From Chiloscyllium plagiosum (Eukaryota): a stretch of DNA of 45,511 nt. Shown here one piece after another: positions 10,101 to 41,358 of this stretch. Below the pieces are notes generated by a model that was not told where the DNA came from, made no database searches, and saw only the letters and a program-made list of their open reading frames with translations. The stretch spans positions 8,403,309 through 8,448,819 of the forward strand of contig NC_057753.1 of assembly GCF_004010195.1 (NCBI RefSeq), in the 5' to 3' direction. The position numbers were made by a program, and so were the translations under genes. Position 1 is the first letter of the stretch. Every line of letters begins with the position of its first letter.

Positions 10101-10256
10101 GTGTGACTTAAACTCATTGCCTGAATTTGACGCCAGCCCCCTCTCTTTCACTGATGACCAGGATTTGGGGCTGAGTCAGTCTCTTCCCAGCTCAATTTCT
10201 TCAACACAAAGCAAAACAGAGCTAGCTCTGTAACTTGGTATTTTTAATGAACGTTT

Positions 10257-10262
10257 TTTATT
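10257..10262 (-). terminator. Candidate polyadenylation signal (AATAAA) of the GPCR gene
   Basis: AATAAA lies on the minus strand about 210 nt past the stop codon, with ATTAAA at 10248-10243. The evidence is motif and position only. Confidence 0.45.
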
Positions 10263-10468
10263 ATATTAAAATTCAAGTTATGAATACAATCAGTGGAGTG
10301 GTGTGTTCTCTCACTGGCCGCTAAGTTGAGAGAAATCTTGAAATTAGACCCTTTAACATGTGTGATCAGTTTGGCAAACCCAACACTACCCTCAGTCGTT
10401 TACGATAGTGACATGCTGTTTCCTTACTGAAACATTGAATTGGAATGACAAAATCGTGAATGGATTGA

Positions 10469-11377
10469 CTAATTCGTCAATTTAATTGATTGATTGATTT
10501 GAATAAAGGGATATTTCAGCAAATTCTTCAGCTGTTGTCTGAACTTAGTCTGAGTCACAGCATAAATCGCAGTATTTGTGCAGCAACTGAGCAGCTGAAG
10601 CATGAAGCCCAATTCCTGCACGTAGCCACTTAGATACACAGACCGATACCCAATATTATACATCCGGTACAATATAGAATACAACATTAACATGGACCAT
10701 AACAAGATGAAATTGGCCGAGATCACAAAGAGTAAAATGATGGACCTTTTTCGATTTTGCATTTCTGTGTCACACTGAACGTCCCCATTAATGTGAGCCC
10801 GAAGTCTCCTGCGGGCTCTGCTGGTCACTAAAATCTGCCTGATAGTGAAAACATTGAGCAGCAGAATCAGGAGAAATGGGAGAGTTGGGGTTAGAATGTT
10901 GTGAAGGAACTCGATTGTGACCCAGGCACGAGAGGTCCGAACACCGTCTGTTACGTCACAAAACCAGGGGTCATTCCCCAGCCGATACCGACCCTTGAAC
11001 ATAAAATACCAGAAAATATTCTTTAAACAAGTCAGCACAGTCACTGCTCCCAGAACCACAGCCGCTGTTTTCCCCCCGCAATATTTGCATTTCAGCTTCT
11101 GGCAACAAATGGCCACAAATCGATCAAAGGTGAAAATGACAGTGAACCAGACAGAACAGTCAGTGACAATGTAAAGCAGGACGGCATGGATATTACACAC
11201 GGGAATGGATGCCAGGAAATAAAATTGTTCCTTATAAACAATTGGAATGTGTCTCAATAACAAAATCAAGGATAACGACCAGTAGATCTGCAAGTGCCAT
11301 GGCTGCCAGGTAACGACTGACACATAGAGACAATCCACAATCTTTATAAACGAGGATGACCATCGTCACTACATTAA
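10469..11377 (-). CDS. GPR139-like: GPR139-like GPCR, coding exon 2 (end of TM1 through TM7 and C-tail); frameshift at 11262-11265
   Basis: Acceptor tttgcttgtcttcaacacAG|TT. The exon reads NVVTMVILVYKDCGLSLCVSRYLAAMALADLLVVILD, then after the extra T: LLLRHIP..PVC..DCSVWFTVIFTFDRFVAICC..WFC..LPFLLILLLN..FILLW..SCCTNTAIY, ending at TAG 10471-10469. It is a family member, not necessarily the GPR139 orthologue. Confidence 0.92.
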
Positions 11378-11943
11378 CTGTGTTGAAGACAAGCAAACTA
11401 ATTATACATCAGTCTGGAAGTCAAGTTACCAATTTGGTTGAGAACTTATTTCGGTTTTAAAATGAGCCACTGTATTCATAAATAAAATGAAATATTCGGA
11501 GCTGAAATGAGAAGTGGGAATATCTGAATTATTTACAAAACGTGATGTAAAACGCACGAAACACCCGTTCCCAAACACAAAGACACACACCCATAAGAAC
11601 AGATGATTTCTAGAATATTTCCATGCACTCAAGCACTCGAAAGCAGATACAGGTCATCTCTTGATCGTTCTGAATACGAAGGGTAAAAACACTACCATTC
11701 CAAAGGATTTTCTCCACTTACTTAAAGTCAAACAGAGGTCGGAAATTCCTATCTGTCATTGCAAATTGTGACTTATCCTCTGCAATAAAGAAACGTAAAC
11801 GCTAGGTAATTTGTTATTAATCACTTTAACTGTCTGCGTGGACTTCAAAATTGTGTCTCGTTCTCCCTGGATTGGGATATGGTCCCTCTGGATCTTTTAA
11901 TGTGTTCAATTAGCTGATGTTCAGCCATTCACAAATCATGACA

Positions 11944-12953
11944 GTTATTGTTAGCCTGTTCGCTGAGCTGGTAGGTTTTATTGGCAGACCTTTCATCCAC
12001 TTATTAGGTGACATCCTCAGTGCTGTGTTGCCTCCAGTGAAGCGTTGCTGCACCGTTCCTCTTTGAATTTATGTGGTTCTGTTTGAACGGTTTTCAGTTG
12101 GTGCCAGTTCCGGTTTTTCATTGCAGTGATTTCTATATTGTGTGCAGGTCAATATGTTGATGGAGTCCGAGGATGAATACCGTGCTTCCAGAAATTCCCT
12201 TACTGTTCTTTGTTTAGCCTGTCCTATTGCTGTGTTGTTCCAGAGAAACTCGTGATTCTTGTTGTTCATATTATGCATTCCAGGGAGTATTGGCTGTTTC
12301 GCTTATTGTTCATTGGTGTTCATGGATGCGGGGTGCTCGCTGTCTTCCCTTTTGGTCCTACATACTGCTTAGTATATTCGTTGAATGGGATTTTGCAAAT
12401 TATGTTCGTCTAGTCCTATATTCTGGTGACCCGCTGTCTGTGTGTGGCTGTCCGTTTGTGTGCTGTCAAGATCCCTCGTGATCGGAGCAGTCGAGTTGTC
12501 ACTTCCAAGATGTCTTTGAAGTATGGAAGAGTAGCCAGTCTATTGGGGCTTGTCTTCTCTTCTTGGTATTGCTTGTCCGGTGGGCATCTATAGACGAAAT
12601 TGTGGGGTATCCGTTTTTAGCAAAGACGTTGTACAGGTGTTATTATCTTTCTCTCCACAGTTCTGGTGTGCTGCAGTGTGTTGTTGCTCGTTTGAATAGT
12701 GTCTTCATGCAGTTACTCTTATGAGTGTTCGGGTGGTGGTTGTTATAGTTTAGGGTCTGATCAGTATGTTTCGCCTTTCTGTAAGCGTTTGTTGTGCATT
12801 CACCATTCGTGTCCTTGTAAACATTACATCTGGAAGTAGGAGTTGTTTTTCCGAATCAAACCGGAACAACACAGCAGCTCTTGACAGGAGACAACACAGC
12901 ACTGATGATGTCACCTAGTAAGGGGAAAAAACGTCTGCCAACAAACCTATCCA
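11944..12953 (-). mobile_element. Penelope-like element (RT C-terminus + GIY-YIG endonuclease + pLTR) with an inverted pLTR copy at about 12850-12953
   Basis: The reverse strand gives YRKAKHTDQTLNYNNHHPNTHKSNCMKTLFKRATTHC, NIICKIP..YVG and REFLEA. Hammerhead-like motifs occur at 11984-12023 (-) and about 12899-12937 (+). Confidence 0.9.
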
Positions 12954-13074
12954 CTTGATTGCAGACAACGGCGAATCCTACAAGCTCCCAAACTGCAGAA
13001 ATTCAGGAAAAAATCTTGAAATGCCAGTTATAGAACGTTCCAGCGAATGTCCATTTGAATGTAGGACAGTATAG

Positions 13075-13520
13075 CTCCTTCTATACCAGTGAAGATGACG
13101 GTTGCTCATCAGTGTGAATTCGCTGATGTGCCTGTAAGTGAGGTAACAGAGTGAATCCCTTTTGACAATAGATACAGGCGAATAGCTTCTTCTCAGTGCG
13201 GCTGCACAGACGTTTTCAACTTTGCTGGGGAAATGACTCCCTTTGCACAGGTCTCACGTTTCAATATTTCTCAAGTTGGTGCATGCACTTATGTTCTGAT
13301 AGATCAGATGATTGGTTAAATGGTTGTCCACACACGGAACACGTACACAATTTCTCTCCAGTGTGAACACTGTTATTTCCTTCCATGTTACATACCCAGT
13401 CGGTATCTGATGTCAACATGGTGCATAACCTTGTAACATACTGATGCACTGTTTGGTTTGGAGGTTTGTGACTGCAAATCCTCACATACTAAGTTCATGT
13501 GAAATTGGTTTAAAACAGAA
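13075..13520 (-). pseudogene. Decayed C2H2 zinc-finger gene exon (about 3 fingers) inside the GPCR intron
   Basis: [29 protein letters not shown], then a stop and frameshifts, then FACIYCQKGFTLLPHLQAHQRIHTDEQP. Confidence 0.85.
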
Positions 13521-13536
13521 AGAAGAGTGAATATAT

Positions 13537-14030
13537 GAAACATAGAACAGTGCAGGAACAAATCCTTCAGCTGACGGGTTTGTGCCGAAGGTGACTCCAA
13601 ATTGAACTAATCTCTTCAACCTGCCCTTGGTATATCCCTCTCTTCATTGCATCTTCATGTGCTTTTAACAAAGTCCCTTAAACGCCACAATACCCTCTGC
13701 CTCAACCACGACCCCGGCAGCACGTTGCAAATTCTTACCACACTGTGTGCAAAATACTTGTACCTGCCATTTCGAATCAATCCCCCCATCTCCCCCAACC
13801 CGTTCTCTTTAAACGTTTCCCACCAAGTAGTAGACATTTAAACTCTGACAAAGAGATTATGACCTTTAACTCTGTCCATGAGTTCTATCAAGTTTCCCAT
13901 CAGCTTCCACCGCGGAGGAGAAAACAAACAGAATTTTCCTAGCCACTTCTTATAGCGAATAACCCAGGTAATATCCTGTTAAACGTCTTCTGGACACTCT
14001 CCAATGTGAAATCGTTCCTGTTATTATGTT
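13537..14030 (-). mobile_element. CR1 3' fragment with tail
   Basis: The reverse strand reads YFAHSVVRICNVLPG. The tail tgttctatgtttc is at about 13540. Confidence 0.85.
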
Positions 14031-15057
14031 TATGGAATACTCCGGAGAATGTTGGTTATTGAATGTTCAAGATAATATCAATTTTAGAAGATGACAGAGT
14101 CATACAGCTGTGCAAAACAAAAACCTTCCGTCCATCAAGCCTGTTGCAGTTCAAAGGAACCACCTAAACATGTTCCGATCAACAACTCCGGTTCAGGAAA
14201 ATGCCACATGATGAAGAGCAGAGATAGTTTGCTGCAATCACAGGAACATGTGACGACGATGCTTCAGTCAGCTATTCAGCATTTCAAAGCTGGTCTGATG
14301 TGTCCTGAGTTCCACATTCCTAACATTTTCTGACAACACTTATTTATTCGTTATTTATGAATCTGTCCCTTCGCACGTCAAAAATTTTCAATTCTTTGGC
14401 TCTCTGGGCAGAGTGTTCCAAAGACTCAGAACACTCTGAGAAAATAAAATAAATCACCTCATCTCTGTAGTAAGTCAGTTTTTGAAAGTTTCAGAGAGTG
14501 TCAGTTTTAGACTTTTCTGGATGATGTCAATTTTAGAAAGCTCCAGATAATGCTCCAAATAATTGTCAGGTTCAAAAAATGTTAGTCCCCCAGTATGTAA
14601 CACATAAGGGGAAGAAGGAGAGATTTTTTTCAAATCACACAGGATTAAAGTCCGTTACGACGTCAGTCAGACCTTCAAACCTGCTCCACCTTTCAATAAC
14701 ATCACCGCTGATGCGATTGTGGCCTGAGCTCAATATTACTGGAATTTTCATTCATTCAACAAACCCCCATTCCGCACCTTCCACACCCCCGCCTCGCCTA
14801 CCCCGTACACATTTTTATGGTTAATCATATCCAATCACAATGAGTAAATTCAGTTATTTTACTTGTCTCACCTTAGTGTATTCCGCCAAAGACATAATCT
14901 AAATATTCTCCAAATATAAAAATGCAATTCTAGTAGAGTACCTTTCTTCTGAGTCGTTACCTTGAATGCCATCAGACTTGCAGCTTCTTCATTACTATCA
15001 AAGTTTCTATTGTCCTTTGTCTTTTACTATTTCTGTCTACAGCAGTTACTCATCCTC

Positions 15058-15270
15058 CCATTCAGTTGAGTGGACGGCTGGCTTATAGTCGAAAGGGACA
15101 CCAACAGCTAAGATTCAATTCCCAAACTAATAGAGGTCACTATGAGCTTCCGTTTTGCTCAATCTCAACCCTACAAGAGGTGCTGTGATTCTCAGGTCGA
15201 ACCACCCCAATTTGTCTCCCCAGTTAGAAAGTAACCCATGGTCCTCTCAGAATATAGTTACATTAACACT
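15058..15270 (+). mobile_element. Degraded tRNA-derived SINE
   Basis: A-box-like cattcagttgag and B-box-like gattcaattccc. The body (ctcaggtcgaaccacc..ccatggtcctct) resembles a shark SINE recalled from memory. Confidence 0.5.
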
Positions 15271-15369
15271 GTTAGAATCTTTTAAAAAATATTCTCTACC
15301 TTATCATTTTCCATTGTATTTTTGAGTGTCTTGCAATCTACACTTTTATTTTGTATCACTGTTGGCATT

Positions 15370-17316
15370 TCTACCCAAACAACATAGGCCTGCACTCTCC
15401 CCAGTAATCTTTCCCTCCGTCGTTATGTATGAATCTATCAGCCTGTGTCTCAAATATGTCCAATTTTCCACCTCTAATGTTTGCTGGGGAAGAGAGTTCT
15501 GAAGTCTCACAACACTGTGAAAAGTGGAAATAAATCTCCTGATCTCTGTAATAGAGGATTTTGAAAAATAAAAACACTAAAATGTACACGTAGCTGCACT
15601 TTTATAAAGTACTTTTGGCTTCAACTGTATCCAGGACAAATATGAACACAGCCGGAGGACTGTGTAAGAAATTTTCTTTGTCTCCTTCCCTGGGAAAATA
15701 TATAATTATATTGGCAGCAGTTCAGAAATGTCTCACTTCACTTATTTCTGGGATGAATGCCTTATATTATGAAATTTTAACATATTAGAATGAAAGGTGA
15801 TCTTTTTCAGTCATACAGGATTTTAAGGACAGTGGATCAGGTGGATACTCTATAGTTGTTTGTATAGTCCAAACTTGTCATTAGGTTTTGCAACGTTCTT
15901 GAGGAATGTTAGTTCAGAAATAAGCCAGTTATTTTTGGCTAATAAAGTAAATTTGCCTGACTTCTTCCTCTCACTGAAACTGACCCAATCTGAGATCTAT
16001 GTCACCGGCCATATTATCGACCTTTCTACACATAACATTTATTCTGACCAGTGGTGTAGTGGGACTAGGAAAGGAAACAGTGACCCCTCTTTCCTTGGTC
16101 AGAACAGGGATGAAGAGAAATTCACAATGTGGTAATTCAGTCAACTGGGGTTTCTCTTTCCCAGACATTTATTTTGGCGGGATCTTTAAATTTTGAATCA
16201 AGGATAATGGGTTCGGACAGGAAAGTGTATTTGAGACTACAGTGAGATGAGCCAGAATCTTATTTGCTGGTGGAATTGTGTCAAAGGGACGAATGAAACA
16301 TAGTGTTCTTCTATCCTCTGTTGTGATGTTCCACTCAACACTTTGAACTGATTACACAGGAGCAGATCGAGGCCATATCGATGGTGAGATATAGGTTGGG
16401 AAAATGTTCTTGGAAAATCTAGGCTAGGTTAGGAATTGACCGCATCCCCCCAAATCCCGACTCAAAGGCTTCCCCTCCTGCAAATTCTGGTGCAGATGTT
16501 GGTCATGCTGTAAGCTCAATTCCACTGTTAATACAGGCCCCATACCTCACCCAAGGTTTGCACAAACAAATGGTCTGGCCTCCTTGAAGACATTGCCCAA
16601 CATGACTTACAGGGAAATAAATAGTTACTTTCCATTAACAGAACTTACGAACATAATAAATAGGAACAGAAGTAGACTATTCCAACACTCAAGCCTGCCT
16701 GCTCCCTTAATAGGAGCATGGCTCAACTGCTCAACGGCTCAACTCCACTTTCATGCGAACTCCTTATATCCATCGTTTCACCGAAATATGAAAAATCCAT
16801 CCACCTCATCTGTAAATAATTTCGGTGATCCAGCCTCCGCAACTATCTGGTTTAGGGAATTCCAGAGATTCACTACCTTCTGAGAAAAGAAAGTTTTGCT
16901 TATCATTTTTAAATCAACATCTGTTATACTGCATCTGTGTCTTCTCCGCCCAGCAGTGGAATATCTCCTCAAAATCCACCTTGTCAAGCCAAGTCGTTAT
17001 CTTGCATTTATTTGTAACGTCACTCCTCATTTACTTCAGTTGCAATGAATAAATACCGAACCTTTTTAGATGTTCTTGATAATTCATTACTTTCATCCCA
17101 GGAATCAGCTCAGTTACTTGCGACACTCGCATGCTAACTTTATGTTTCATACACAGGAAATCCCGTTACAGCATCTAAAAAGCAACTGGATGGGTATATA
17201 CATTGGGAGAGGTTAGAGGGATATGTGCCAACTGCTGCCATATTGAACTGGAGTATTCTGGCATGAACGAGTTGGACTAAAAAATCTCTTTCAGTGCTGA
17301 ACATCTCTATGACTCT
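15370..17316. mobile_element. Cluster of old CR1 fragments in both orientations (about 15370-15560 -, 15600-15870 +, 16070-16330 +, 16640-17110 -, 17150-17316 +)
   Basis: FFSQKVVNLWNSL (ORF 16778-16987), FSQCCE and a ctctatgactcta tail at 17305-17316. Confidence 0.7.
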
Positions 17317-17659
17317 AAATGCTGCTTCACTTGGAAGTTTATTTCGGGTCTTGGGAAATGAGGAGGGATGAGATGAACGGCACATGTTGTAGCTTCTGCA
17401 ATTCCTTACCTTTGCAGCCTGACCCCGTTATGACAGTTCTCCTTTTCTTCAGGCATTATTCCTCCCATTCTCCTAATTACCTTGTCTTGCACTCGTTAGA
17501 GATAGTCCATTTCCTCCATTCACAACTTATTCATACTGGTTTTGCACCTGTTTTTCTTTCAACATCAGTTAAAAGCCCATTTGTCTTTTGCACCGGGCCT
17601 CCACGCACTGTATCACGTCATCCCTCCTCCACCTCTGTCAAGGGATTGAAAGTTTATTT

Positions 17660-17920
17660 TTCAATCATTTTCAGTACGGACATGTCAGATTAGACTTGAA
17701 ACGTTATCTCTCTTTCTCTGTGTCCAGAGATATTGCCAACCTGTTGAGAATCTCCATTAATCCACAGGCACAGAACACATTGTCAAAAAAAAACAAAGAA
17801 CTGTGGATATTGGAAATCTGAAACATAACAAAATTGCTGGATAAATTGGGAGATTTGAAGAAGGGTGAGTGGACCCTAAAAATTAATTCTGTTTTCACTC
17901 CACAGGTGCCGCCTTTTTAA
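17660..17920. mobile_element. Degraded Penelope-like pLTR ends (a + copy at about 17680-17760 and a short inverted unit at about 17780-17920)
   Basis: gacttgaaacgtta..ccagagatattgccaacctgttgag; aaacaaagaactgtggatattggaaatctg followed by tgaagaagggt..gaccc. Confidence 0.5.
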
Positions 17921-18239
17921 TTTCTCTAGTAATTTACATTTTTTGAACAAGTTTTAAAGACATATATCAAAGAAGCTCAGACATCCTATCCAAAATGGAG
18001 CACCGGACACCAGGAAGTGAGATAGTGCAAGGTGCAACAATTAATTGGTTCTGAAAACACATAAGGCTGGCAACACAGCAACCGTAGAGGTCTTAAGCAT
18101 GGTCAAGAAGAAAAACAGAGGGAAACATATTCACTTTGGACACAGAAGATGGCACAACTGGAAGAGAAAGAGTTTAGATGAATATTACACAATTTTTGAG
18201 GAATGCGTAAATTGGAAGCTCGATACCATGGAGAGGCCC

Positions 18240-19640
18240 TCAGATAAATGCGAATATTAAGATGAAAATATTACAACATCAGAAACCACAGTATGTTACT
18301 AAGTACAGGGCAGATGGCTGAATGGGTTTTGGTATGAATTGGGGGGCAGGCAACAGAACTGCATTGCAGATATTGCAGCTCAAAGCTGGACATGCGTACG
18401 CTGCTGAAGACCACGCAGCACCAGAAGCGGAATCGTATTCAACAAAAATCTGTAACTTTTTGCGCAGGTTAATCCCTAAGTTTATATTGCCAGTAAGCCA
18501 ATCTGTGCTTCAGAGACGAGTGTGGGTGGACGTGCCAGAGTCGGATCCATGTTTAACTAACAATACTGGCAATCTATTAAAACTACCGAACTTGACTGCA
18601 TGCATTACAATAGCAAAACTAACATCTGAAAGGGAGGGCAAAATGATCCCAAGCTCAATAAATCAAATCTAAGTTTTGCAGTCCTGTCACATCCCGTAAT
18701 AAATGGCAATGGGCAATTAACAACTCACTGAACATGACGACTCCACAAATATCCCCATCCTAAATAATGGAATATCCCTGTATATCAGTGCAAAACACCA
18801 GGATATATTATTTGCATCATCCTCAGCCGGAAGAGTTGAGTTGGTGATCGACCTCACACTTGTCATGTTGTCCGCAGAATCACATATGCCAGTCTCCATG
18901 CAATTTGCTTCGTGGCACGGGACATCAAGAAACAGTTGAATACAATACATATGACAACAGCGACGGGTGTTGGCATCAATGCTGCAAAAGGATTTGCTAG
19001 TTGTGCTGCACATCAAGCCGTTGTCCGGGAACCCTGTTTCATTCCAACACCACCTTTGACATCTACCGCACTATGTGGAAAATTGTTCACCTATATTCAG
19101 TCGCCTAAGAGGAGCACAATTACTATCAGACTAATTGTCACATCACGATTGTCATATTGGTGGAAGTTATTTTTGATTTGGCTGCCAAACAGCACAGAAA
19201 TAACCTGCTCAATGTAGTTTTCTTAAGGTCTCCATCTGGACATGATGTTGTTTTTGCAATGTCACTGGATCAGTACTCCAGATCAGGATTATGGTATGGC
19301 AGCAGGTGGAAATTAAAAACAATTAATAGAACTTTTCGACATCAACTCTGGTGACAATAGTAGAGACCTTGAAGCCAATGTCGAATGGAAACACCAATTT
19401 ACTTCAGCAATGTATTTTCAGGAAGCCAATCAACTTCCCTTTTCTGGTCTAGCCTAAAAGTGACTCCGAGCACACAAGCATGTGGCGAACTATTTAGTGC
19501 TCTGTGAAACGGCAAAGCAAGACACTCAATTGTATTAAACTGCGCCGAAGACCTAGAAAGGACAGGACACTGGAACCAGCCCTGGTGTTGGAAAAGGGAA
19601 CAAGAAACCCAATCCTGTCGATTCTGCAGAGGCCTCCTTC
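18240..19640 (+). mobile_element. Heavily degraded LINE ORF2 of a second CR1/L2-group family
   Basis: NIPILNNG, ISAKH, RDIKKQLNTI and IYRTMWKIV correspond to the pre-RT region NIPILNDG..ISAKDKAE..RDIKK.L..IYP.MWKIA. Confidence 0.6.
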
Positions 19641-19689
19641 GTAACATTTGTTGTTTGCTCTCTGTTCTTTGATCTTGTTCTTTGTTGCC

Positions 19690-21370
19690 CTTTCTCGTCC
19701 CACATCTCCAGTTGATCAAAGCCCTGCTGCAATTTCGTATAATTTTCCTGATTGTCCACGTTGCTGCTAATTTTAGTGTCATCTGCAAACATTGCTAATT
19801 ATGCCTTGTACATTCTCAGCCAAATCGTTTATATAGAAACAGCAAGCAACAATGGGTCTAGCACTGAAACTTAAGGCGCATCACTAGTCACAAGCGTCCA
19901 GTGAGATACTACCCTCAAGCCAATTGTATATCCAATGTTCCACTTCCCCCTTGATCCATGCGTCCTACCCTTCCAGAGCAACCTACCATGTGGAATCTTA
20001 TCAAAAACCATACAGAAATCGATATAGGTTGCTTCTACCACCCTGCCCTCATCAATATTCCTGGTCATTTCACCTAAAAACTCGAACAAATGTGTGACAC
20101 ATGATTCCCCATGCAGAAAGCCATGCTGGCTACTTCTAATCAAACACTATCTTTCCAAATGAGTGTATATCGACTCCCTCAGAAACTTCTCAGGTAACAC
20201 CTCCCCTACTGTGATATCGACTGTCCTCAATACATCACTATTAACTTCCCCCGATTACCCAAGTCTCATGTCTTCCTTTACAGTAAAGAATCAGGAGAAA
20301 TGTTCATTTTGGACGTCGCCCATCTCCTCTGGTTCCACATATATATTTCCAATTTGGACATCGAGGGATCGTATTCTTTTCCCTGTAATATGCTTAAATC
20401 TCTTTGGATTTACCCTAAAGTTTCCAGCCAAACCTGTCTCGTGTTCCCTTTTCACTCGCCAGTTATTTTTCGTCATTAATCTTACGTATCTGCTGTGTAC
20501 GTCCAAGGGTTCCCTCGATCCAAGCTGCCCGTACTTGCATCATGCCTCCTTCTTGTTTTCTAATCAAAACCTCAATATCTTTTGTCATCCAGGGTTAAAT
20601 CCTCTTAACAACCTTCACCCTATTAGGAACATAGAGACTTTGGACTGTAGCTATCTCAGTTTTAAATGGCTCAAAGTTCCGGATGTATCATTTCCTGCAA
20701 ATAAACTGTTCTAATCCACTCTAAAATCTTCTGCCTAATTCCATCAAAATTAGCCTAGTCCCAATTTAGAGCTTCAACCCATGGACTAATTTTGTCCCTG
20801 TCCATAAATATTTTAAAATTAATAGAACTATGACAACTGGTCCAAAGAAATCTCTGCCACAGTCACCTCAGTCAGTTGTGCTGAACCTATTTCCCAAGAG
20901 AAGGTCGAGTTTTGCCCCATCCCAAGTGGGACTCTCTATATATAATTTATCAATTCTACCTCATCCAAGCCTTTAACCGCAGTCTATGATAGGAAGGTTA
21001 AAGTCGTCTACTATGACAACCCTGTTGTTTCTGCAAATCTCCCCTGTTAACATACATATTTGTTCCTTCAATTCCCGTTGACTGTTTGGGGGGCCTATAT
21101 TGGCATCCTGGTAATGTCACCATTCCCTTGTTACTTCTCAGCTCCACCCACTAAGACTCATTCGGTGAATCTTCACTGATTTTATCTCTGGTTACCTCTT
21201 TGATACTCGCCTTAATCGAAAATGCAACGCCCCCTTCGGTCTTGCTAACACCTCTATCCAGCCTGACCCATCTACCCTGGCACATTAAGCTGCCAGCACT
21301 ATCTCTGCCTTATCCGTATTTTGCATGGTTATAATATTCTAGTTCCATATACTTCGCCATTTTCCCTGTT
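19690..21370 (-). mobile_element. CR1 ORF2 (endonuclease to RT) with internal deletion, degraded
   Basis: IRSSQHGFLHGESCVTHLFEF..DFCMVFDKIPH (19871-20143), FADDTKI (19553-19792) and NPKRF (20291-20506). Confidence 0.9.
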
Positions 21371-21486
21371 GTTCCCTTTTAAATGGTCGAATTACATTTA
21401 TAAAATATCACTTATTCAGAATGGTTTCATGCCTTGACAGAATATTTTGAGAAAATAACTCTGTGATGACCAGTACAATTAATGTG

Positions 21487-21711
21487 AAGAAAGTGAGGAC
21501 TGCTGATTCTGGAGATCAGAGTCGAGAGTGTGGTGCTGGAAAAGCACAGCAGCTCAGGGAGTATCCGAGGAGCAGGAGAATCGACGTTTCGGGCGTATGG
21601 CGTTCAATGGAATCCTGATGAAGAGTCAGACCCGAAAAGTCGATTCTCCTGCTTCTCCGATGTTGTCTGACCTGCTGTGCTTTTTCCAGCACCACACTCT
21701 CGACACCGAGA
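21487..21711. mobile_element. Palindromic Penelope-derived mini-insertion (two inverted pLTR ends)
   Basis: Arms 21521-21593 and 21631-21704 are imperfect reverse complements. The flanks are TACAATTAATGTG and TACAATGATGTG. Confidence 0.85.
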
Positions 21712-21719
21712 TACAATGA

Positions 21720-23650
21720 TGTGTCTCTTAATGTTTCCTTTGAAATGTTAGCATGTTTTACATCATTTCGATCGGTTTAATCAGTGCTTGAATCAAATGT
21801 GTTTCAAACTACTGCATCATTACTAACATTGATGATTTTAGTCTTCAATTACACAAGTCTCATAGTCACTTGGAATTTCTGGCTGATATTCTGGATCTTA
21901 CTCTATGAAGATAAACACAAAGTAAGTGTTTTGTTTTCGTGCAATGTGTCTGTTCTCCACAATAAATTATTCTGTTCGTATACCCAGTATTCCAAATTTG
22001 GCTTTGCTTTTATTTTTCTTTCAAATATCGACAGAAGTTCCTCGGAAATCTATCTGTTCCCACATATTTTATATTCTTGTTCCCTTTTTGATTTTCTTAT
22101 CAAATTCCACACATTTCTCCACACATCTCTTACCACAATATCTGGCATTATCCTAAATTGCTTCTTTTGTTCGACTGCAATCTTTAAATTCTGTTGTCAA
22201 CCATCATTGAGTCACTTTTTCCGTTTGGTTTATTTCCTTTAAGGGATAAGTGTATATTACCTTTATTTGAGTGTTTTTGTAAACACCACTCATTGCCTGT
22301 CTTCCATTAAACGTTTGTCATGTATTTTATTTTTCAGTTTACTGAAGTCAATCTGCCCCTCATTCCACCGTGGTTTGCATGATTCAGATTTATAATCTTA
22401 TAAAGCGGAGGTTGATTCCCATATGAGAACTAAAATCGAGATATCCAAAGAGGAGAAAATCGCCTCATAATCCATAAAAGGAGTATGAGAAGTGATGTAA
22501 CCTGCTTTTCATCTACTCCTCGTGGCTAAATAAAATAAACGCTCAACACTCACTCTGAAATCAGCGGGCAACAGTTTATTTATCTAACTCTAACAGTGAA
22601 CAAATTAAACAAACTAATAACAAACATAATAAATCCCATCAAAATACTAACTGTTTAGGAATTTATTCTGCGCCTTCTCCATTGGTTCTTCTGTCAGGAA
22701 TATTCACTAGTTTTGTCATTGGTACAGTTGTTATTTAGATGATGCTTTTTCTAATACATAGTGGAGACTGTCAGAGCCCCAGATTCTCTCTTTAGCGCTA
22801 AGGACCGTCAGCTCTGAAAGTCGGCAACTAGCTCTGGGGTTTTTGTTTAACTGCCCCCTTCTTTTTATACCCCTGATGACATGTCAACTTCTGACAATAG
22901 GATTGGTGCTATGTTGTCAAAACACGTTTAAATTTAATAGGTTTTTGATACCTAAGATCTTGATTCAAATTGATTGGCTAAGTTAAAAAGCCTGTTGTTT
23001 TAGTAAAAATAAAACTGCCATTTGGCCCGCTAACTTAACGATCTTTCGAGACAAATGTTTCAATTCGGGTGCCCTCTGTGTACTTGCAAACTTTTAAGAG
23101 ACTGCTCACAGATATCCATTTTGAACCCCTAAGCACAGAAAAAGCACATGATCTTTTTAAAAAAAAGACGACGCAATGCTTACCCCAAGCACATTACAAA
23201 TTCCAAATTCTAACTTCCACACTCCCAATCTGCAAGTACTCCAGCCAACTTTGCAACAATAACCATAATTGAAAAACAAATACAAGAAAAACGGTTTGTA
23301 CTCAGATGTCACAGTAAGGTCAGCATACTATGATCACTACTCCTAAAAGCTCCTTCACAGCAAGATTGTCAATTCACTTCTCTGTGCCATATAACCAGTT
23401 CCAAACTGCCTCATTTGTCGCGTATTTCTCAACATATTGATCAAGAAACCATCTCATAAATGCTCATGAAATTCATTTTTACCAGCATTCACTTCGATTA
23501 ACACAATTTAGATGCAACTTGAATTTGTCCTTTATTATTGTTGTATCCGCAAACTTGCATACCTAATTTCCTGTTTTTTTTAATAACATGCCCAACCTTT
23601 GCATTGCTGTTTTGACTTATAAATACAGCTCCTATCAAAGTTTGCTTCGC
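21720..23650 (-). mobile_element. Old CR1 ORF2 N-terminal region, split by the solo LTR
   Basis: Weak reverse-strand CR1 endonuclease-region motifs, e.g. tatgatcact (SDH) at about 23330, comparable to tgtgatcact at 43252. Confidence 0.5.
22496..23313 (-). mobile_element. Solo LTR (Gypsy-like), 818 bp
   Basis: TGTAAC...GTCACA termini and a 4-bp flank GTGA/GTAA (3/4 match). On the minus strand TATAAAAA (about 22862-22869) lies upstream of AATAAA (about 22580). Confidence 0.65.
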
Positions 23651-24267
23651 GTTCAATCGAATCTGGTTGACACAGGCTCCGGGGAAACTAATGATATCTT
23701 CATGTTGGATGTTTGACGACGACTATGAGATTATATTGCCAGTTATTATTAGTTCTTCGCAAGCATCATTTTGACTTTTTTCACCAGATATTCCGTTCAA
23801 TCGGTGGAATAGAGAACTACAGTGACGTTTCATGACTGCTGTGCATTCCTCCAGATTGTTGAAACTGCAACTTAGCAAGGTATTTTTGCTGCTGTCCAGG
23901 ATTTTCGTGAATTCACGCTGGGGTAGTGTGCACAATTTTAATCTCCTCATTAAAGAGAGAATACTGTTACCTTGGACGCAGCTCAGAAGTTTTCACTACT
24001 GATTGCTGAAATGAAGGTGTTAACATATATTGAAAGGGTGATCAGATTGATTTTACAAGAATGAAAATGATCTTAGTTTTGCATAGAAGAAACTAACTGG
24101 TCAGTAACATAAACCAGTTGCATAGATTATGGAGAAATCCATCCGCTTCTCAGCTTATTTCGCAGGAACACCACAAGTATATTCAGGCTTTCGACCATGG
24201 CACACGAGAAGATAACAGGTCGAGGATATTCAGCCCCCGGATCCTGACATGCACTAATTGGAAGAAG

Positions 24268-24400
24268 AGAAAGTGAGGTCTGCAGATAATGAAAATCTGA
24301 TTTTAAAAAGTGTGATACTGGCAAAGCACAGTCGGTCGGGCAACATCCGACGAGCAGGATAATCGACATTCAGAGAATAATCTCTTCATCAAGAATGATC
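24268..24400 (-). mobile_element. Degraded Penelope-like pLTR end
   Basis: gaaagtgaggtctgcagat...gagcaggataatcgacatt..cttcatcaagaatg is homologous to 41194-41325. Confidence 0.75.
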
Positions 24401-25029
24401 AAGAACATATCCTTTCAACACCGACTCTCCAGCTAAAGGAAGAGACCAATCAGCTGCTCGAGCTGAGTGCACTGAGCCCAGAGTACGACTGGCAGCACCT
24501 GTATCCTGTTATACAGCAAAACGGTCAGTGCACTCAGCATCCTCAAGAAGCCCAAACGTCACTGAATTGGAAGGGGACCAGTCAGCGCATCGAAACTCTC
24601 GCACAGGAATGAGAGAAATATTTGAGACTTTTTGGGGAAAGGAGGAGTTAATTCAGCTATGTGATTGTTGTCCATGAACAGGAGAACATCAATCGCTCTT
24701 TCAATCACATTTCAGTGATTCAAGAAAAGACTTTTCAGCATCTCAAGCCTCTTATGTTGGATTGTGAGGAGACCATGCAGCCCCTCAGAATGTTACATAG
24801 CCACAGGAAGATTGCATAAACCTTCAAATCTCTTACACGTCAACAAGAGGATGACATACAGACATTGAACCTCCAACTGAGGAACAGAAGCAGGGCATTC
24901 CCGCCTGTGTGACTTTAACATAGAAGCATGAAGAGGGCAAGCAGTCCACCGAGTTTGCAAATCAGGAAGAGAGGCATTAGTAACATATCTTCTAAGCCAT
25001 TGTGACCACTACACAGGAATGGGAAGGTG

Positions 25030-26598
25030 AAGGTGTGAAAATAGATATGTCGCCTCGGCCGGATGGGATTTATGCAAGGATTCTCTGGGAAGCTGAGGAG
25101 GAGATGGCAGAGCCTTTGTCCTTGATCTTTAAGCGCGTATTATCTGCAGGTTTAGTACCAGAGGACTGAAGCACTGTACATGTTGTGGCCTTGTTCAAAA
25201 AGGGCAATAGATATGACTCTGGTAAGTATAGACCAGTGAGCCTTACGTCTGTTGTAGGAAAAGTTTTGGAAAGGATTATAAGTGATAGGATTTATGATCA
25301 TCTCGCAAGCGACAATTTGATTGGAGATAGTCAACGTGGTTTCGTCAAGGGCAGGTAGTGTCTCACAAACCTCATTGAATTTCTTGAGAAGGTGGCCAAG
25401 CATCTGGATGAGGGAAGGGCAATGGACGTGGTGTAAATGGACTTCAGGAAAGCTTTTCATAAGCTTCCAAATGGTAGGCTTCTGGAGAAAATGCGAAGGC
25501 ATGGACTGAGGGAAATTTCGCAGTTTTGATTAGAAACTGGCTTTCTGATAGAAGGCTGCGAGTGGTGGTTGATTGCAAACTTTTCAGCCTGGAATCCATT
25601 TACTAGTAATGTTATGCAAAGATCTATTTTGGGGCTACTATTCTTTGTCATTTTTATAAATGACTTGAATGCAGGCAAAGGTGGATGGGTTAGTAAGTTT
25701 GCAGATGATACTTAAGTCAGTGGAGTGGTGGACAGTGTGGAAGAATGTTGCAGATTGCAGGGAGACTTGGATAAGCTGCAGAATTGGGTAAAGAGGTGAC
25801 AAATGCAGGTTCAATTCAGATAAATGTGAGGTGATTCATTTTGGGCAGAATAACAGGAAGGCAGAATACTGGGTCAATGGAAGATTTCTTGGTAGTCTGG
25901 AAGTGCAGAGGTATCTTGGTGTCCATGTACATAGATCCCTGAAAGTTGCCACCCAAGTCCATAATGCTGTTAAGAAGGCATACAGTGTGCTAGGCTTTAT
26001 TGGTGGAGGGATTGAGTTAGGGATTCATGATGTCTATTAACAACTGTGCAAAAAGTGAGCACTCTTTACTTGGTATATTGTGGACAGTTCTTGTCACTCC
26101 TTTACAGGAAGGATGCGGAAACATTGAAAAAGTTGCAGAGTAGATTTGCCAGGATGTTGCCAGGTCTGCAAAGAAGGTCTTATGAGGAAAGGCTGAGAGA
26201 CTTGGATCTGTTCTCATTGGCGAGAAGAGGGCTAATAGCGGATTAAAAGAGACATGCAAGATGATCAGAAGTTTAGATATGCTGGACAGTCATTGTCTTT
26301 TTCCTAGGATGATGACGGCAGCTTATACGAGGGGGAATAGTTGCAAATTGAGGGGTGATAGATTTAAGACAGATGTCAGAAGCAGATTTTTTAGTCAAGG
26401 AGTGGTAAGGGCGTGGGGTCTCCTACCTGTCACTGAAATTAACTCAGCCACTTTAGGGCCATTTAAACAGTCCTTGGATAAGCTTATAGATGATGATGGG
26501 ATAATGTACGGGGATGATCCTAGATTAGTTCACAGGTCAGCGCAACGTTGAGGGCTGAAGAGCATGTTCTGTACTGCATTGTTCTATGCCCTTTGTTC
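25030..26598 (+). mobile_element. CR1 LINE, 5'-truncated (whole RT domain to tail)
   Basis: SPRPDGIY, YRPVSLTSVVGK, CLTNLIEF, FADD and FFSQGVVRAW motifs, with tail gttctatg. Confidence 0.93.
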
Positions 26599-26787
26599 AA
26601 CATAGAGGCTAGAGAAAGGGAAGAAGTCAGAGTAAGTATCTTCATTATGTAGCAAAGTTCTTGAGCAAACCATTGAGATTGAAGGAAAATAGTTAGAATC
26701 CATTACGAAGGAGTTTATAACAGGAGATTTGCAAAGTAAAACTAAAATCCATTACAGTTAGCATGGCTTTATGAAGGATAAACTAGG

Positions 26788-28128
26788 CTGGTGGTGGGCA
26801 AGTTGTTGGAGGGAATCCTGAGGGACAGGATGTACATGTATTTGGACAGGCAAGGACTGAGTAGGAATAGTCAACATGGTTTTATGGGAGGGGGGCGCAA
26901 TCATGTCTCACAAACTTGTTTGAGCTTTTTGAGGAAGTAACAAAGAGGATTGATGAGGGCAGAGCGGTAGATGTGATCTATATGTACTTCAGTAAGGCGT
27001 CCGACAAGGTTAACAAGGTTAGATCTCACGGAATACAGGGGGAACTAGCCATTTGGATATAGAACTGGCTCAAAGGTGGAAGACAGAGCGTGGTGGTGGA
27101 GGGTTGTTTTTCAGAGTGAAGGGCTGTGACCAGTGGAGTGCCACAAGGATCGGTGCTGGGTCCTCTACTTCTTGTCATTTACATAAATGATTTGGATGCG
27201 AGCAAAAATCGTATGGTTAGTAATTTTGCAGATAGCACCAAAATTGAAGCTGTAGTGGACAGCAAAGAGGATTACCTGAGATTACAACACGATCTTGATC
27301 AAATGGGCCAATGGGCTGAGAAGTGGCAAATGGAATTTAATTCTGATAAATACGAGGTGCTGCAGTTTGGGAAAGCAAATCTTAGTAGGGCTTACATACT
27401 TAAACTAAGGTCCTAGGGAGTATTACTGAACAAAGAGATCTTGGACAGCAGGTTCATAGCTCCTTGAAAGTGGAGTCGCAGGTAGATAGGATAGTGAAGA
27501 CAGCGTTTGGTATTGTTTCCTTTATTGGTCAGAGTATTGAGTCCAGGAATTGGGAAGTCATGTTGTGGCTGTACAGGACATTGGTTAGGCCACTTTTGGA
27601 ATATTGCGTGTAATTCTGGTCTCCTTCCTATCAGAAAGATGTTGTGAAACTTGAAAGGGTTCACAAAAGACTTACAAGGATGTTTCCAGTGTTGGAGGAT
27701 TTGAGATATAAGGATAGGCTGAACTGGCTGGGGCTGTTTTCCCTGGAGCTTCGGAGGGTGAGGAATGACCTTACGGATGTTGACAAAATTATGAGGGTAT
27801 TAGATAGGATAAATAGTTAAAGTATTTTTCCTGTGGTCGGGGACCCCAGAACTAGAGGGCATAGTTTTAGAGTGAGAGGGGAAAGATATAAATGAGACCT
27901 AAGGGGCAACTTTTTCACGCAGAGGGTGGTACTTGTGTGGAACGAGCTGCCAGAGGAGGACGTGGAGGTTGGTACAATTACAACATTTAAGCATCATTTG
28001 GACGAGTGTATGAATAGGAAGGATTTGGAGCGATATGGGCCGAGTGCTGGCAGGTGGGACTAGATTGGTATGAGATATCTGGTCGACATGGAAGGGTTGG
28101 ACCGAAGCTGTATATCACTATGACTCTA
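26788..28128 (+). mobile_element. Younger CR1 LINE, 5'-truncated
   Basis: VVGKLLEGIL, SGVPQGSVLGPLL (ORF 27126-27416), FTQRVVLVWNELP and tail ctatgactcta. Confidence 0.93.
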
Positions 28129-28859
28129 AAATGGAAAATGCAGATCCTGGAGATATACTACATGTGGACTTTCAGAACACATTGAACAATGTACCATGCA
28201 AAAGATTAATATACTACAGAAGAGCACATAGATTTAGAAATAACTTGGATAGAGAATTAGCTAACCAACTAAAAGCAGAGAAAAGGAAAGAATGTGTCAT
28301 CTTCTAATTGACAACCTCTGGGGCGCCATCGATTTCAATCCCTGGGACCCATGTATTTACAGTGGATATCATTATAGGATAAGGGATAAAGGATAAAGGA
28401 TATCATTAAAGAATTCATTATAGCCAACTTTTCATATAATACTAAAATAGATGCAAAAGTAGATTGGAATGAAGAAATACATCGATGAATGAGTCAACGT
28501 TTGGCCAATGATATTTAACATGGATAAGTATGAGATTATCCATTTTGGTTTGATGAATAGAAAGGCAGCTTATTATCTAAAGGGAGAGAAATTTCAGAGT
28601 GCTTGTGTGGAGCGGGGTTTACGTTTCCTCATACATACCACAGAAAACTTGAATGCTGATCCAACTAATAGAATGGCAAGTGTAGTGTCAGCGTTTATTT
28701 CCATAAAAACGAATAACCAGCAAATGAAAGATTAATGCCTAAACTTTCGGATATAAAATTAGGGAAGTACTGCTGCAGCTATGCAAGATATTTAGCGAGA
28801 TTGCAACTCCAGTGCAGCCTACACTTTTGGTGACCTGACTGGAGGAGGAAATTCGGAGG

Positions 28860-28990
28860 AAGTGAGGACCGCAGATGCTGGACATCAGAGTCGAGAGTGT
28901 GGTGCTGGAAAAGCACAGCAAGTCAGACAGCATCCGAGGAGCAGGAGAATGGACGTTTTGGCCAAAAGCCCTTCATCAGGAATGAGGCGG
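28860..28990 (-). mobile_element. Penelope-like pLTR end; hammerhead motif with G12A change
   Basis: Reverse strand CTGATGA-AGGGCTTTTGGCC-AAAACGTC, otherwise close to 41194-41325. Confidence 0.85.
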
Positions 28991-29818
28991 GAGTTAGTAG
29001 CATTGGAGACAGTTCAGAAGAAGTTCACTAAATTGATTACAGCGATGAGGAGCTTGTATTTTGAAGAATGATTGAGCAGTTTAGGCTTATTTTCTTGGAG
29101 TTTCGGAGAATGAAAGAAAATCTCACTGAGGTATGTGAAATGCTAAATGTATTTGGTAATCTAGATGTTGAATGAATATTTACTCATGCGAAGCAACCTT
29201 GAACTAGTGATAATAGATTGACGATTAGGCAGAACCGATTGACAACGGGGGTAAGGAAAATGTACTTCTCTCAATGGTTTGGGAATCTCTGTAATTCACT
29301 ACCCCGCTGTATTTCAGTGTTCAAGATTCAAATAGCAGATGGAATGAATTAAGTGTATTCTGGATGTTAGTGGTTAAAATTAGGAATGGTTAGGATCCAG
29401 TGTGAAAAATAAGCTCATTGCTCAACGGATTACAACAGTTGTGAATCATCTGCTTCAGCCTTAGATTTTCGCCGGGGTTGGGATGGAGTCAGAGGAAGGA
29501 AACTGAGATTGTAAACAGAACAAAGGATGGTAACTTCCATGCTCTCAATGCTTAAATAGCAAGGGCAATGATACAATGAATCGTGCTTCATACATGAAAC
29601 TGCCTAGATCGAGAGAATGACACACAAGGGACATGGTCAGAAGCATAGAAGGATAGAGTGAATGAACAAGTTCAATGATGCAGTTTATAGTGGTTTGTCG
29701 AATGAATATCCGGATACACAGTCTCAGTCAGAAGCATGAAGGACTGCTGAGTAAATGAGAAGAATAGTAAAACGGTTATAGATGGCTTACAGAAATAATA
29801 ACTGGGAGTTAGATTTAC

Positions 29819-29999
29819 CAAAGACACCAACGATAGCCAGGATAGGATAATAAAAACATTGAATTATGTAAAGAACATAGACGATCCGTACTGATAATAT
29901 GATCCAATCATAATATGTGGAAAGATTCCAAATGTAACTGGATAAACCCTTATCCATTGTGGTAGCATTCCATTCTATTGAGTTCAGATTCTGATCCAT
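29819..29999 (-). CDS. GPR139-like: GPR139-like GPCR, coding exon 1 (N-terminus and most of TM1)
   Basis: Strong Kozak context ccaacaATGG. Reads MDQNLNSIEWNATTMDKGLSSYIWNLST..IQCFYYPILAIVGVF, with two N-glycosylation sequons (NAT, NLS). Donor G|GTAAAT at 29818 is phase 1 and matches exon 2. Confidence 0.85.
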
Positions 30000-30180: not shown

Positions 30181-30479
30181 AAGACTAACAATATTCACAG
30201 TCACTGAACAGATTCAGTTAATGATATCCTTACATCAATTTTCATGTCACAATAAGAAGGAATATAACATCCTATGCAACATTTCCATGTGAGTACATCC
30301 TTTCTCAAATAAGGAGGCCAAAGTTGCAGTTGTAGTCTCACCATCACCTGACACTGCTTCAGCATAACCCCTATATTTTATAACTCCACCTCACTCGCAA
30401 TGAAGGACAATATTCCATTTGTCTTCTAACTTTAGTTCTGCACGTGCCAACTAACTTTTTGTGATTCATTATCGTTTCC

Positions 30480-30640
30480 AGGGCTGATTAGCCTCCTCCT
30501 GTAATTGCATATCAGGTTCCAAGGCTGAATAGCTTCGTCCTGTTTTGATACAGCAGAATCGAAGGCCTGAATGTACTTCTGCTGCTTTTCTATAACACGT
30601 CAGGGGAGAGGAATGGATTGCTCCATTTGCTGCTCAATTG
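30480..30640 (+). repeat. Degenerate tandem of 3-4 CR1 3'-terminal motifs (about 42-nt period)
   Basis: gggctgattagcctcctcctg / aggctgaatagcttcgtcctg / ggcctgaatgtacttctgctg. Confidence 0.5.
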
Positions 30641-30964
30641 GCTTCGGTTGCTAATACTTCAAGTTCTTATATGTTGATATAAGGTCACATTTTATTTTTG
30701 GAAGCTCCAATAGGTATTGGCTCAACCTGCTTATCTTTTCCTCGTAAGTTAACTGCGTCACACGAATCGTTTGAGGAAAATATCTTTGAGCTTTTACGAT
30801 TGCAACAACGTCTTGCCTTCAGTGAGGAAACTCAATTGGTGTAATCCACTCGACTTGTAGTTTCACGAAAATCCTGTAAACCACAGCAGCACTTTGTAAC
30901 TTTAATTCTGGTTCCAATTCCAATTATCATCCAGACTGAGACTGGAAATATGTGTCACTTTTAA

Positions 30965-31120: not shown

Positions 31121-31777
31121 GTCACTTTTAATAACTAAGGCATCTGCCATCTCAGACTGTCATCAGTGTTTAGAACATTTTTTCCAAGAGACTGGTACAG
31201 GCAGTCTTTCAATATTCCTGAGGCAGAGGCAGACAGTTGTATAATGTGCACCAGGGTCAACTTTTCTCTCTGTAGGGGTGATGAAATGTGGAACTGAGAC
31301 CACAATTAAATCCTCTATGGTCTTATTTGAATAGTTGAGGAAGTAGAAGGGACTGAGTGACCGATTGATTCAAGTTGTTCGCATGCTCCTATGTTTCTAA
31401 CAAGCCAAATCCCCTCCTCTTTTCGTGTAATATTCCGGCGCGGGCAGACGGACCCCTACTGCTATTCCAGGGTCAAAGTTCCTATGAGATAACTGCGTTC
31501 TTCATCTACTGATGCATTCCATCCAAGAGATGGAAGGATGCTCTCCTGCTCATTCTAACCAAGTTTGAGAAAATGTCCTCTTAATGTTCCCATGTCACAG
31601 GATTGAGGGACAAAATGTCCTCCAGCCTCTATTCTTCTGTAGTCTCCATAGGCAGCAATCTTTCCTCCTAATTTCGTGGAGTATTCTTAGGGACTGCTGG
31701 TCGAATTACAATGACATGCAAGAACGCCACTGTTCGCCTTTCTCCATTTCGAGAAAGTCCCTTTAAGTACTACTTTA

Positions 31778-33750
31778 TAGAACATAGAACATTATAGCGC
31801 AGTACAGACCCGACGGCCCTCTATGTTAAGCCGACCTGTCACACCAATCTGAAGCCCATCTAACCTATACTATTCCATGTACGTCCATATGCTTGTCCAA
31901 TGATGACTTAAATGTACTTAATGTTGGCGAATCTACTACAGTTGCAGGAAAAGCATTCCATACCCTTATTACTCTCTGAGTAAAGAAACTACCTCTGACA
32001 TCTGCCCTGTATCTATCACCCCTCAATTTAAAGCTATGCCTCCTCGTGCTCGCTGTCACCATACTTGGAAAAAGGCTGTCCCTGTTCACCCTATCTAACA
32101 CTCTGATTATCTTATATGTCTCTATTAAGTCACCTCTCAACCTTCTTCTCTCCAATGAAAACAGCCTCAAGTCCCTCAGCCTTTCCTCGTAAGACCTTCC
32201 CTCCATACCAGGCAACATCCGAGTAAATCTCCTCTGCACCCTTTCCAAAACTTCCNNNNNNNNNNNNNNNNNNNNNNNNNNNNNNNNNNNNNNNNNNNNN
32301 NNNNNNNNNNNNNNNNNNNNNNNNNNNNNNNNNNNNNNNNNNNNNNNNNNNNNNNNNNNNNNNNNNNNNNNNNNNNNNNNNNNNNNNNNNNNNNNNNNNN
32401 NNNNNNNNNNNNNNNNNNNNNNNNNNNNNNNNNNNNNNNNNNNNNNNNNNNNNNNNNNNNNNGTACACCACTAGTAATTGGACTCCAGGATGAACATTTC
32501 CCATCAACCACCATCCTCTGTCTTCTTTCAGCAAGCCAATTGCTGATCCAAACTTCTATATCTCCCACAATCCCATTCCTCCGCATTTTGTACAATAGCC
32601 TACTGTGGGGAACCTTATCGAACGCCTTGCTGAAATCCATATACACCACATCAACCGGTGTACTCTCATCTATCTGTTTGGTCACCTCCTCAAATAACTC
32701 AATAAGGTTTGTGAGGCACGACCTACCCTTCACAACACCATACTGACTATACCTAATCAACTTTTTTTTTGAGATGGTTATAAATCTTATCTCTTATAAC
32801 CTTTACCAACACTTTACCAACAACTGATGTAAGGTTCATTGGTCTATAATTACCAGGTTTGCCTCTACTCCCCTTCTTGAACAGGGGAAGCATATTTGCT
32901 ATCCTCCAGTCTTCTGGCACTCTTCCTGTAGACAATGACGATTTAAAGATCAACGCTAAAGGCTCGGTAACCTCCTCCCTGGTTTCCCAGAGGATCCTAG
33001 GATAAATCCTATCAGGCCCAGGGGACTTATCTATTTTCACACTCTGCAGGATTTCTAATACATCTTCTTTGTGAACCTCAATCCCACCTAGTCTAGTAGC
33101 CTGTATCTCAATATTCTCCTCGACAAGATTTCCATTTTCTAGAGCGAATACTGTCGGAAAATACTGTGCAGCAGGAACAGACTCTGTGCCAGAGCCCTGT
33201 GTCCCACTACTTTCCCCTGGTAAGTCGTTCCCCCCCCCCCCCAACAGTATCCAAAACGGTATACTGATTGTTGAGGGGCATGGCAACAGGGGATACCTGC
33301 ACTGCCGGCCGGTTCCGTTTCTGTCGCCTTACTGTAACCCCTCTGCCTTTTTCTTGAAACTTAGGAGTGACTACCTCTCTGTAATTCCTCTCAATAACCC
33401 ACTCTGCCTCCCGAATGGTCCGAAGTTCATACAGCTCTAGCTCCAGTTCCCTAAAGCGGTTTTCGAGGAGCTGGAGTTGGGTGCACTTCCCGCAGATGTA
33501 GTCAGCAGGAACACTAGTGGTGACCCTTACCTCCCACATTCTGCAGGAGAACATTCAACTGCCCTAACCTCCATTCCCACTATTATAAATTCCCAAAGAG
33601 ACTGTTGAAAAATAAGGAATAAAAGATAAACTTGTTACGTTAGCAATCTGGCTCACAGAACCCCTTTTTTTGTTTAGAAGAGGAGGATGGGTGGCAAACA
33701 TTACCCGAGTAGTGTTTGGGGTAACGCAACCACACAAGTCCTTCGCTCCT
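31778..33750 (-). mobile_element. Young CR1 with 5' UTR, ORF1 N-terminus, large internal deletion, RT and tail; spans an N gap
   Basis: ORF1 CxxC motifs (SCRMWE..CGKC, ORF 33207-33554) join directly to YFPTVF..DKSPGPD..NYRP, then GRSCLTNL..DFSKAFDKVPH and FFTQRV. Tail tgttctatgttcta. Confidence 0.93.
32256..32462. other. Assembly gap (207 N) inside CR1
   Basis: Run of N. Confidence 1.
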
Positions 33751-41323: not shown

Positions 41324-41358
41324 AGGCTGGTGTGCCAAGCGGGCTGAGATAAAAGATA

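Follow-up and report, generated by a model that had tools for sequence, protein, structure and literature searches.

The stretch of DNA analysed here (referred to as the window) covers 45,511 nucleotides of the Chiloscyllium plagiosum contig NC_057753.1 (positions 8,403,309 to 8,448,819 of the forward strand) and contains, on its minus strand, a receptor gene consisting of two coding exons joined at phase-1 GT-AG sites (Table 1). The gene product is a class A (rhodopsin) G protein-coupled receptor (GPCR), which matches the Pfam family 7tm_1 above the cut-off (E 8e-13) and no other Pfam family. Its exon 1 encodes N-glycosylation sequons at residues 11 and 25 and a variable helical extension, its stop codon is the TAG at 10471-10469, and 3,641 nt of its 18,441-nt intron are repeats matched elsewhere within the window. 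The window gene is an ordinary member of its family, and the interest lies in that family.

A preliminary description of this locus had rebuilt the receptor from the same two exons. The exons, the GT-AG sites, the phase and the length of the intron all hold, but the plain exon join is not open: it comes to 1,090 nt, which is not a multiple of three, and reaches a stop at codon 109. The 362-residue “corrected” protein given there is obtained only by the unstated removal of one base from the T run at 11262-11265. The pairing of the exons is sound: of the 120 relatives, 61 extend over exon 1, and the best exon-2 match among these, also the joint best for exon 1, is the whale-shark protein P0003, whose N-terminus is identical to the exon 1 product at 40 of 59 residues. 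Further, when the 120 relatives were searched against the window by TBLASTN, no additional receptor exon appeared at E<1e-3, so the intron holds no rival exon 2. Weak matches near 16300, considered as a second receptor copy, have E>0.3 and were rejected. Among alternative acceptors from 11691 to 11230, no AG yields a full-length open frame with the first two transmembrane helices (TM1-TM2) of the family; the only open one, at 11316, skips 61 nt and stays out of the family frame until the break.

The same TBLASTN search places the frame change between 11269 and 11253, within TM2. Four of the 24 listed public sequencing runs were compared with the window over 10200-11700, among them X1 and X2, which are two samples from two studies (the kind of X2 is not on record). 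The contigs of X1 (depth 18.2) and X2 (depth 18.1) over the site have one base fewer at 11262 and differ at 11260; the extra T is absent in both of the two runs with a contig over the site. Unique flanks have a depth of 14-22 and match the window without differences in X1 and X2. When the protein is read through with an X at the break, it departs from the family at six conserved columns out of 172; the median of the family is 2.9%, and departures as large or larger are seen in 36% of the 120 relatives. As X1 and X2 lack the extra base at unique-flank depth and the protein shows no excess decay, the gene is probably intact in the species, and the extra T is likely an assembly or sequencing error. 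Run X6 carries another haplotype in which 11 bases are deleted at 11384-11396, in the pyrimidine tract just upstream of the exon 2 acceptor.

The homologue search returned 1,567 proteins at E<=0.001, a number that takes all species together and includes unrelated GPCRs. Among the matches listed, all 120 are from sharks (29 from whale shark, 60 from horn shark, 11 from zebra shark, and others), and nearly all are automatically named “probable GPR139”. The nearest relatives are those of carpet sharks, at 79-83% identity; the window protein and whale-shark P0003 are identical at 288 of 359 residues. A profile search gave 132 clusters (50% identity, E<1e-30), of which many are fragmentary, and 23 high-scoring representatives were looked up, 21 of which are from sharks or rays and one from the chimaera Callorhinchus. 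Tandem arrays are indicated by members with neighbouring accessions on one contig, found in several clusters, and by 16 of the 29 whale-shark rows sharing one longest contig of 94.4 Mb; near-identical tandem copies occur. The window gene belongs to a large chondrichthyan receptor family that displays birth-and-death expansion in tandem clusters. A lineage-expanded family had been anticipated in the preliminary description, and it is borne out by at least 29 whale-shark and at least 60 horn-shark clusters, with tree and profile in agreement; the single copy per genome that characterizes GPR139 and GPR142 is not found in it. We found no description of this expansion in the open-licence literature, and subscription papers may bear on the point; the 24 supplements of the whale-shark genome paper hold one GPR142 orthogroup label. 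The receptor repertoire is apparently undescribed, though NCBI lists its proteins under an automatic name that is misleading.

Besides the shark family, we distinguish two groups of relatives, tentatively referred to as clade A and clade B. Clade A (also named “probable GPR139”, e.g., P0233 and P0406) is represented by one cluster per species among 20 amphibian matches, and by sturgeon. In an IQ-TREE analysis under LG+G4 (29 of 90 rows), the family is supported at 96/92, the family plus clade A at 100/99, and the window protein as sister to P0003 at 100/99; in FastTree with 90 rows, the family has a support of 76 and the family plus clade A of 97. The trees thus place the family as the sister of a single-copy amphibian/sturgeon gene. 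The clade B gene occurs in sharks, teleosts, amphibians, and reptiles, and amphioxus receptors are likewise among the next relatives of the family. The family profile scores clade A at 165 bits, clade B at 156 bits, and human GPR139 at 50 bits; GPR139 in turn is scored at 101 bits by amphioxus P0258 and 70 bits by coelacanth P0237. By these scores (50 bits vs. 165 and 156), and with GPR139 and GPR142 absent from the tree, the family does not represent the single-copy GPR139 orthologue, in agreement with what had been supposed earlier. According to passages of a published study, GPR139 and GPR142 share an ancestry with the protostome MIP, FMRFamide, proctolin, and myosuppressin receptors (PMC8514136). 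Atlas neighbours include FMRFamide-receptor-like clusters, and PF10324 (Srw) marks 16% of the nearest Atlas cluster. A model of P0003, with a predicted local distance difference test score (pLDDT) of 65, has seven long helices and helix 8, and all its top fold matches are class A GPCRs, among which a fold search does not discriminate.

Residues are cited below by generic numbers, which were counted from the DRF, W6.48, and NxxxY anchors, and their GPR139 equivalences come from a remote alignment. In a word-limited search, clade A was found only in amphibians and sturgeon, and S1.50 and N2.50 replace the usual N and D in it. Clade B, a second conserved orphan clade (P0237, P0246, P0295, P0339, P0334, P0378, and P0384), consists of proteins automatically named GPR139 or GPR142; they come from sharks, sturgeon, teleosts, coelacanth, amphibians, and, among reptiles, lizards, snakes, and turtles, and the 120 matches listed include neither birds nor mammals. 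They keep E2.61 and R6.51, have C or S at 6.48, and are without P6.50.

Three unusual motifs (DRF, FILLWS, and NTAIY) had been noted in the receptor from the window. All of them are in the translation, but they are common to the family and not peculiar to this gene. Phe follows DR in all 16 close relatives and in 39 of 50 representatives, Thr occupies 7.50 in 16/16 and 42/50 respectively, and only 7/50 representatives have Pro at 6.50. The odd motifs are thus traits of the family and not signs of decay. The cysteines of TM3 and of extracellular loop 2 (ECL2) are invariant in a 57-row alignment.

For the ligand pocket, passages of a study on human GPR139 report that its Trp/Phe site needs F109, W241, and N271, that mutation of N271 abolished most of the Trp and Phe response, and that H187 matters for synthetic agonists (PMC5430874); according to passages of another study, such agonists are bound by R244 and D84 (PMC12775434). 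In the alignment with GPR139, F109 corresponds to Y, W241 to W, N271 to F, H187 to H, R244 to L, and D84 to R. The Phe in place of N271 (7x38) is found in the window protein and in 14 of the 16 close relatives, with a TM7 register that could be off by one, R244 (6x51) is replaced by L, F, or I, and D84 (2x61) by R. The aromatic floor of GPR139 is thus kept in the subfamily and the polar anchors are replaced; the set of Trp/Phe-site residues (F109, H187, W241, and N271) is not present as a whole, N271 being lost. Clade B has E2.61 and R6.51 in 12/12 proteins each, both of which the family lacks, and clade A has R2.61 in 7/7.

A first variability scan was made on 57 aligned members, with the topology taken from the P0003 model. 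The most variable columns belong to the outer face, and TM3 hardly varies: the variable rim consists of the N-terminal helix, ECL1, ECL2, and the top of TM6-ECL3-TM7, while the core and the inner face are near-invariant. Among 28 whale-shark paralogues (row P0077, of another subgroup, was left out), the ratio of outer-loop to inner-face differences is 3.52 (p 1e-7), and the control ratios are 0.47 in 20 clade A proteins from amphibians and 0.91 in 46 clade B orthologues. Positions with a difference of at least 0.7 in whale shark number 13 of 65 in the loops and 0 of 65 on the inner face. The site profiles of the 28 whale-shark and 60 horn-shark paralogues are correlated (Spearman 0.65 over 356 sites). 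In horn shark, 29 of 34 hypervariable sites are extracellular, compared with 95 of 356 positions overall, and these same sites differ at 0.67 in whale shark vs. 0.14 elsewhere. At the 20 sites shared by both species, Trp and Tyr make up 20% of the residues and Asp and Glu 14%, compared with 11% and 5% at the remaining outer sites, a composition that would resemble that of antibody binding surfaces. Variation in the family is thus concentrated on the ligand-facing side, in comparison with single-copy controls.

A chemosensory role fits this pattern of variation. We tentatively propose, as the preferred reading, that the window gene, a two-exon class A GPCR gene that is probably intact in life, encodes one of many receptors by which peptide-like cues from outside are sensed. 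The ligand would be large enough to touch the loops, e.g., a peptide, and would dock on the variable rim, which would set the specificity of each copy and tell ligands apart, while one end of the ligand may reach a pocket that is fixed within the subfamily (R2.61, Y3.33, D3.37, H5.42, and W6.48). Every copy would then signal via the same G protein through the conserved inner face, so that tandem duplication followed by change of the rim could widen the ligand range on a shared signalling core. A similar suggestion exists for the srw receptors of nematodes, a family with the same birth-and-death pattern, which its describers, in passages of their paper, speculate to be a detector of environmental peptides (PMC2576165). 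The cells that carry the shark family may be sensory, immune, or reproductive. More speculative, and rather doubtful, is the wider idea that the family represents a seventh, overlooked family of vertebrate chemoreceptors in cartilaginous fishes, larger than their known smell repertoire and derived from the GPR139/peptide-receptor lineage in parallel to nematode srw, which would read peptide or protein cues from prey, conspecifics, or microbes with an antibody-like hypervariable rim on a shared core.

Several observations weigh against this proposal. The borders of the regions were drawn from a model of moderate quality after the variability scan had already been seen, and diversifying selection rests on amino-acid patterns, which relaxed constraint on the loops may explain. 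The pocket varies across subfamilies (R2.61 in 13/50 and Y/F3.33 in 20/50 representatives), as it does in small-molecule chemoreceptors. True GPR139 and GPR142 were not recovered by the homologue or representatives searches and are absent from the trees. As to intactness, run X6 has no contig at 11260, X1 has a total depth at 11262 of 29 vs. 18.2 without the base, the remainder being unexplained, and X1 may be the assembly's own sample. Further, in passages of a study in which the family was not probed, the olfactory neurons of catshark are without exception labelled as microvillous and V2Rs dominate the expression (PMC10116579), and there is therefore no obvious gap in the catshark nose. The top 50 nose-and-brain genes include no GPCR in passages of another study, in which the family was likewise not looked at (PMC11979771). 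One single-cell RNA run of unlabelled tissue gave, from about 2% of the run, seven partial reads that are 95-99% alike; they are paralogue-like and uninformative on the window gene.

If the assembled sequence is taken as it stands, the window copy would be a genuine pseudogene of recent origin, or the sequenced animal would carry a null allele of it, independently of the role of the family. Birth-and-death families produce many pseudogenes, the assembled frame ends at codon 109, and the in-frame contigs could derive from a near-identical paralogue, in line with the unexplained extra depth of X1. We nevertheless regard this as unlikely, because the in-frame contigs occur at unique-flank depth with flanks identical to the window in X1 and X2, the protein shows no excess decay, and a pair of differences separated by two bases, within a T-rich run, may well be a consensus error. 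For the family as a whole, the rim could also be the product of an arms race if its members were immune or self/non-self receptors, carried by leukocytes or by barrier epithelia, that read peptides of microbes or parasites. Rim variation enriched in Trp, Tyr, and acidic residues, together with tandem expansion, is equally expected from such receptors, and formyl-peptide receptors and other immune families vary likewise; yet the nearest kin are neuropeptide and amino-acid receptors and not chemoattractant receptors, and an immune role is improbable.

Nothing links the family to sensory tissue, and near-identical tandem copies exist, both of which would agree with a role inside the body (gamete recognition, neuronal identity, or hormone-like peptides) or with a family that arose, for the most part neutrally, as a side effect of tandem duplication and gene conversion. 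Drift, however, would not spare the inner loops and tail, where the whale-shark counts given above leave no position at 0.7 (0/65 vs. 13/65 in the loops), and receptors for endogenous peptides stay near single-copy in nematodes, according to passages of PMC2576165; we take this internal or neutral alternative to be rather unlikely. The sensing of free amino acids, or of comparable small molecules, by a GPR139-like pocket, which the preliminary description had raised, draws on human GPR139 as the best solved relative, on pocket differences between subfamilies, and on three of the four mutagenesis-critical residues, for which the subfamily has the same or a similar amino acid (Y for F109, H for H187, and W for W241). 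Against it, N271, R244, and D84 are changed (to F, L/F/I, and R), the variation within the subfamily is on the rim, outside so small a pocket, and E2.61 and R6.51 are kept by clade B (12/12 each) and not by the family, which together make amino-acid sensing distinctly unlikely.

With the reading of rim-sorted external cues as the preferred one, the family can be compared with known systems. Human GPR139 (PDB 7VUG and 9M42) and GPR142 are alike in the class A seven-transmembrane fold, GPR139 is also without the TM7 proline, and the subfamily has Y/H/W at the positions of its F109/H187/W241. However, N271, R244, E108, and D84 of GPR139 are replaced in the family, whose profile gives GPR139 only 50 bits; the TM6 proline is mostly lost (P in 7/50), a cysteine in TM3 of the family has no counterpart in the aligned GPR139, and GPR139 is one gene whereas the family has dozens of paralogues per species. 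Clade A shares R2.61 with the family but, unlike it, keeps P6.50, and its loops are more conserved than its inner face. The Caenorhabditis srw family (PF10324), as described in passages of PMC2576165, resembles the shark family in its birth-and-death expansion from FMRFamide/myosuppressin receptor kin; it is, however, an independent nematode expansion, and the window protein matches only 7tm_1. The OR, TAAR, V1R/ORA, V2R/OlfC, T1R, and T2R families are also tandem, lineage-specific GPCR expansions, and none of the searches made ties them to the shark family by sequence.

Passages of a survey of olfactory receptors give cartilaginous fishes a mean of 43.8 complete genes in the known families, the smallest repertoire of vertebrates despite their many sensory neurons (PMC10869828), and the present family is not among the families counted there. 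Cartilaginous fishes are also described as poor in GPCRs, in passages of PMC8455134. If the family is sensory, a large set of receptors named “probable GPR139” would overturn this picture of receptor-poor cartilaginous fishes; if it is immune, it would be a new kind of variable receptor. With the list of rim sites and the single-copy sister gene of amphibians, both ideas can be tested directly, in sharks and also in Xenopus.

Table 1. Coordinates of the receptor gene and of repeats in the window (position 1 is the first nucleotide of the window)
Feature	Position	Strand	Details
Coding exon 1	29819..29999	-	181 nt; donor GTAAAT; N-terminus to first part of TM1
Intron	11378..29818	-	18,441 nt, phase 1, GT-AG
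Coding exon 2	10469..11377	-	909 nt as assembled; acceptor ...ACAG; end of TM1 to TM7 and helix 8
Frame break in TM2	11260..11265	-	Extra base in four-T run 11262-11265 and substitution at 11260
TATAAAA	30376..30382	-	About 380 nt upstream of ATG; candidate promoter
AATAAA	10257..10262	-	207 nt past stop; candidate poly(A) signal; ATTAAA at 10248
Copies of ~120-nt repeat	21488-21704, 24267-24398, 28855-28994, 35812-36014, 41192-41355, 42196-42325		
LINE-type remnants	5-1037, 2632-3659, 25029-28107, 31777-35262, 39772-41185		

The frameshift described above is accompanied, outside the gene, by an exact 168-nt tandem duplication at 42861-43193 and two N gaps (32256-32462 and 41359-42012), which together suggest an assembly of draft quality. 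A 26-bp satellite upstream of the gene was not seen in the window. Upstream of the TATA box, the minus strand has a stop-broken frame at 30435-30923 without Pfam or NCBIfam support, which by eye may resemble the coiled-coil segment in the S subunits of type I restriction systems. Remnants of the long interspersed nuclear element (LINE) type are 65-82% alike among themselves, and three open reading frame pieces outside the gene match the reverse transcriptase family RVT_1. The dispersed repeat of about 120 nt, whose copies are 75-92% alike and form some inverted pairs, is probably a short interspersed nuclear element (SINE).

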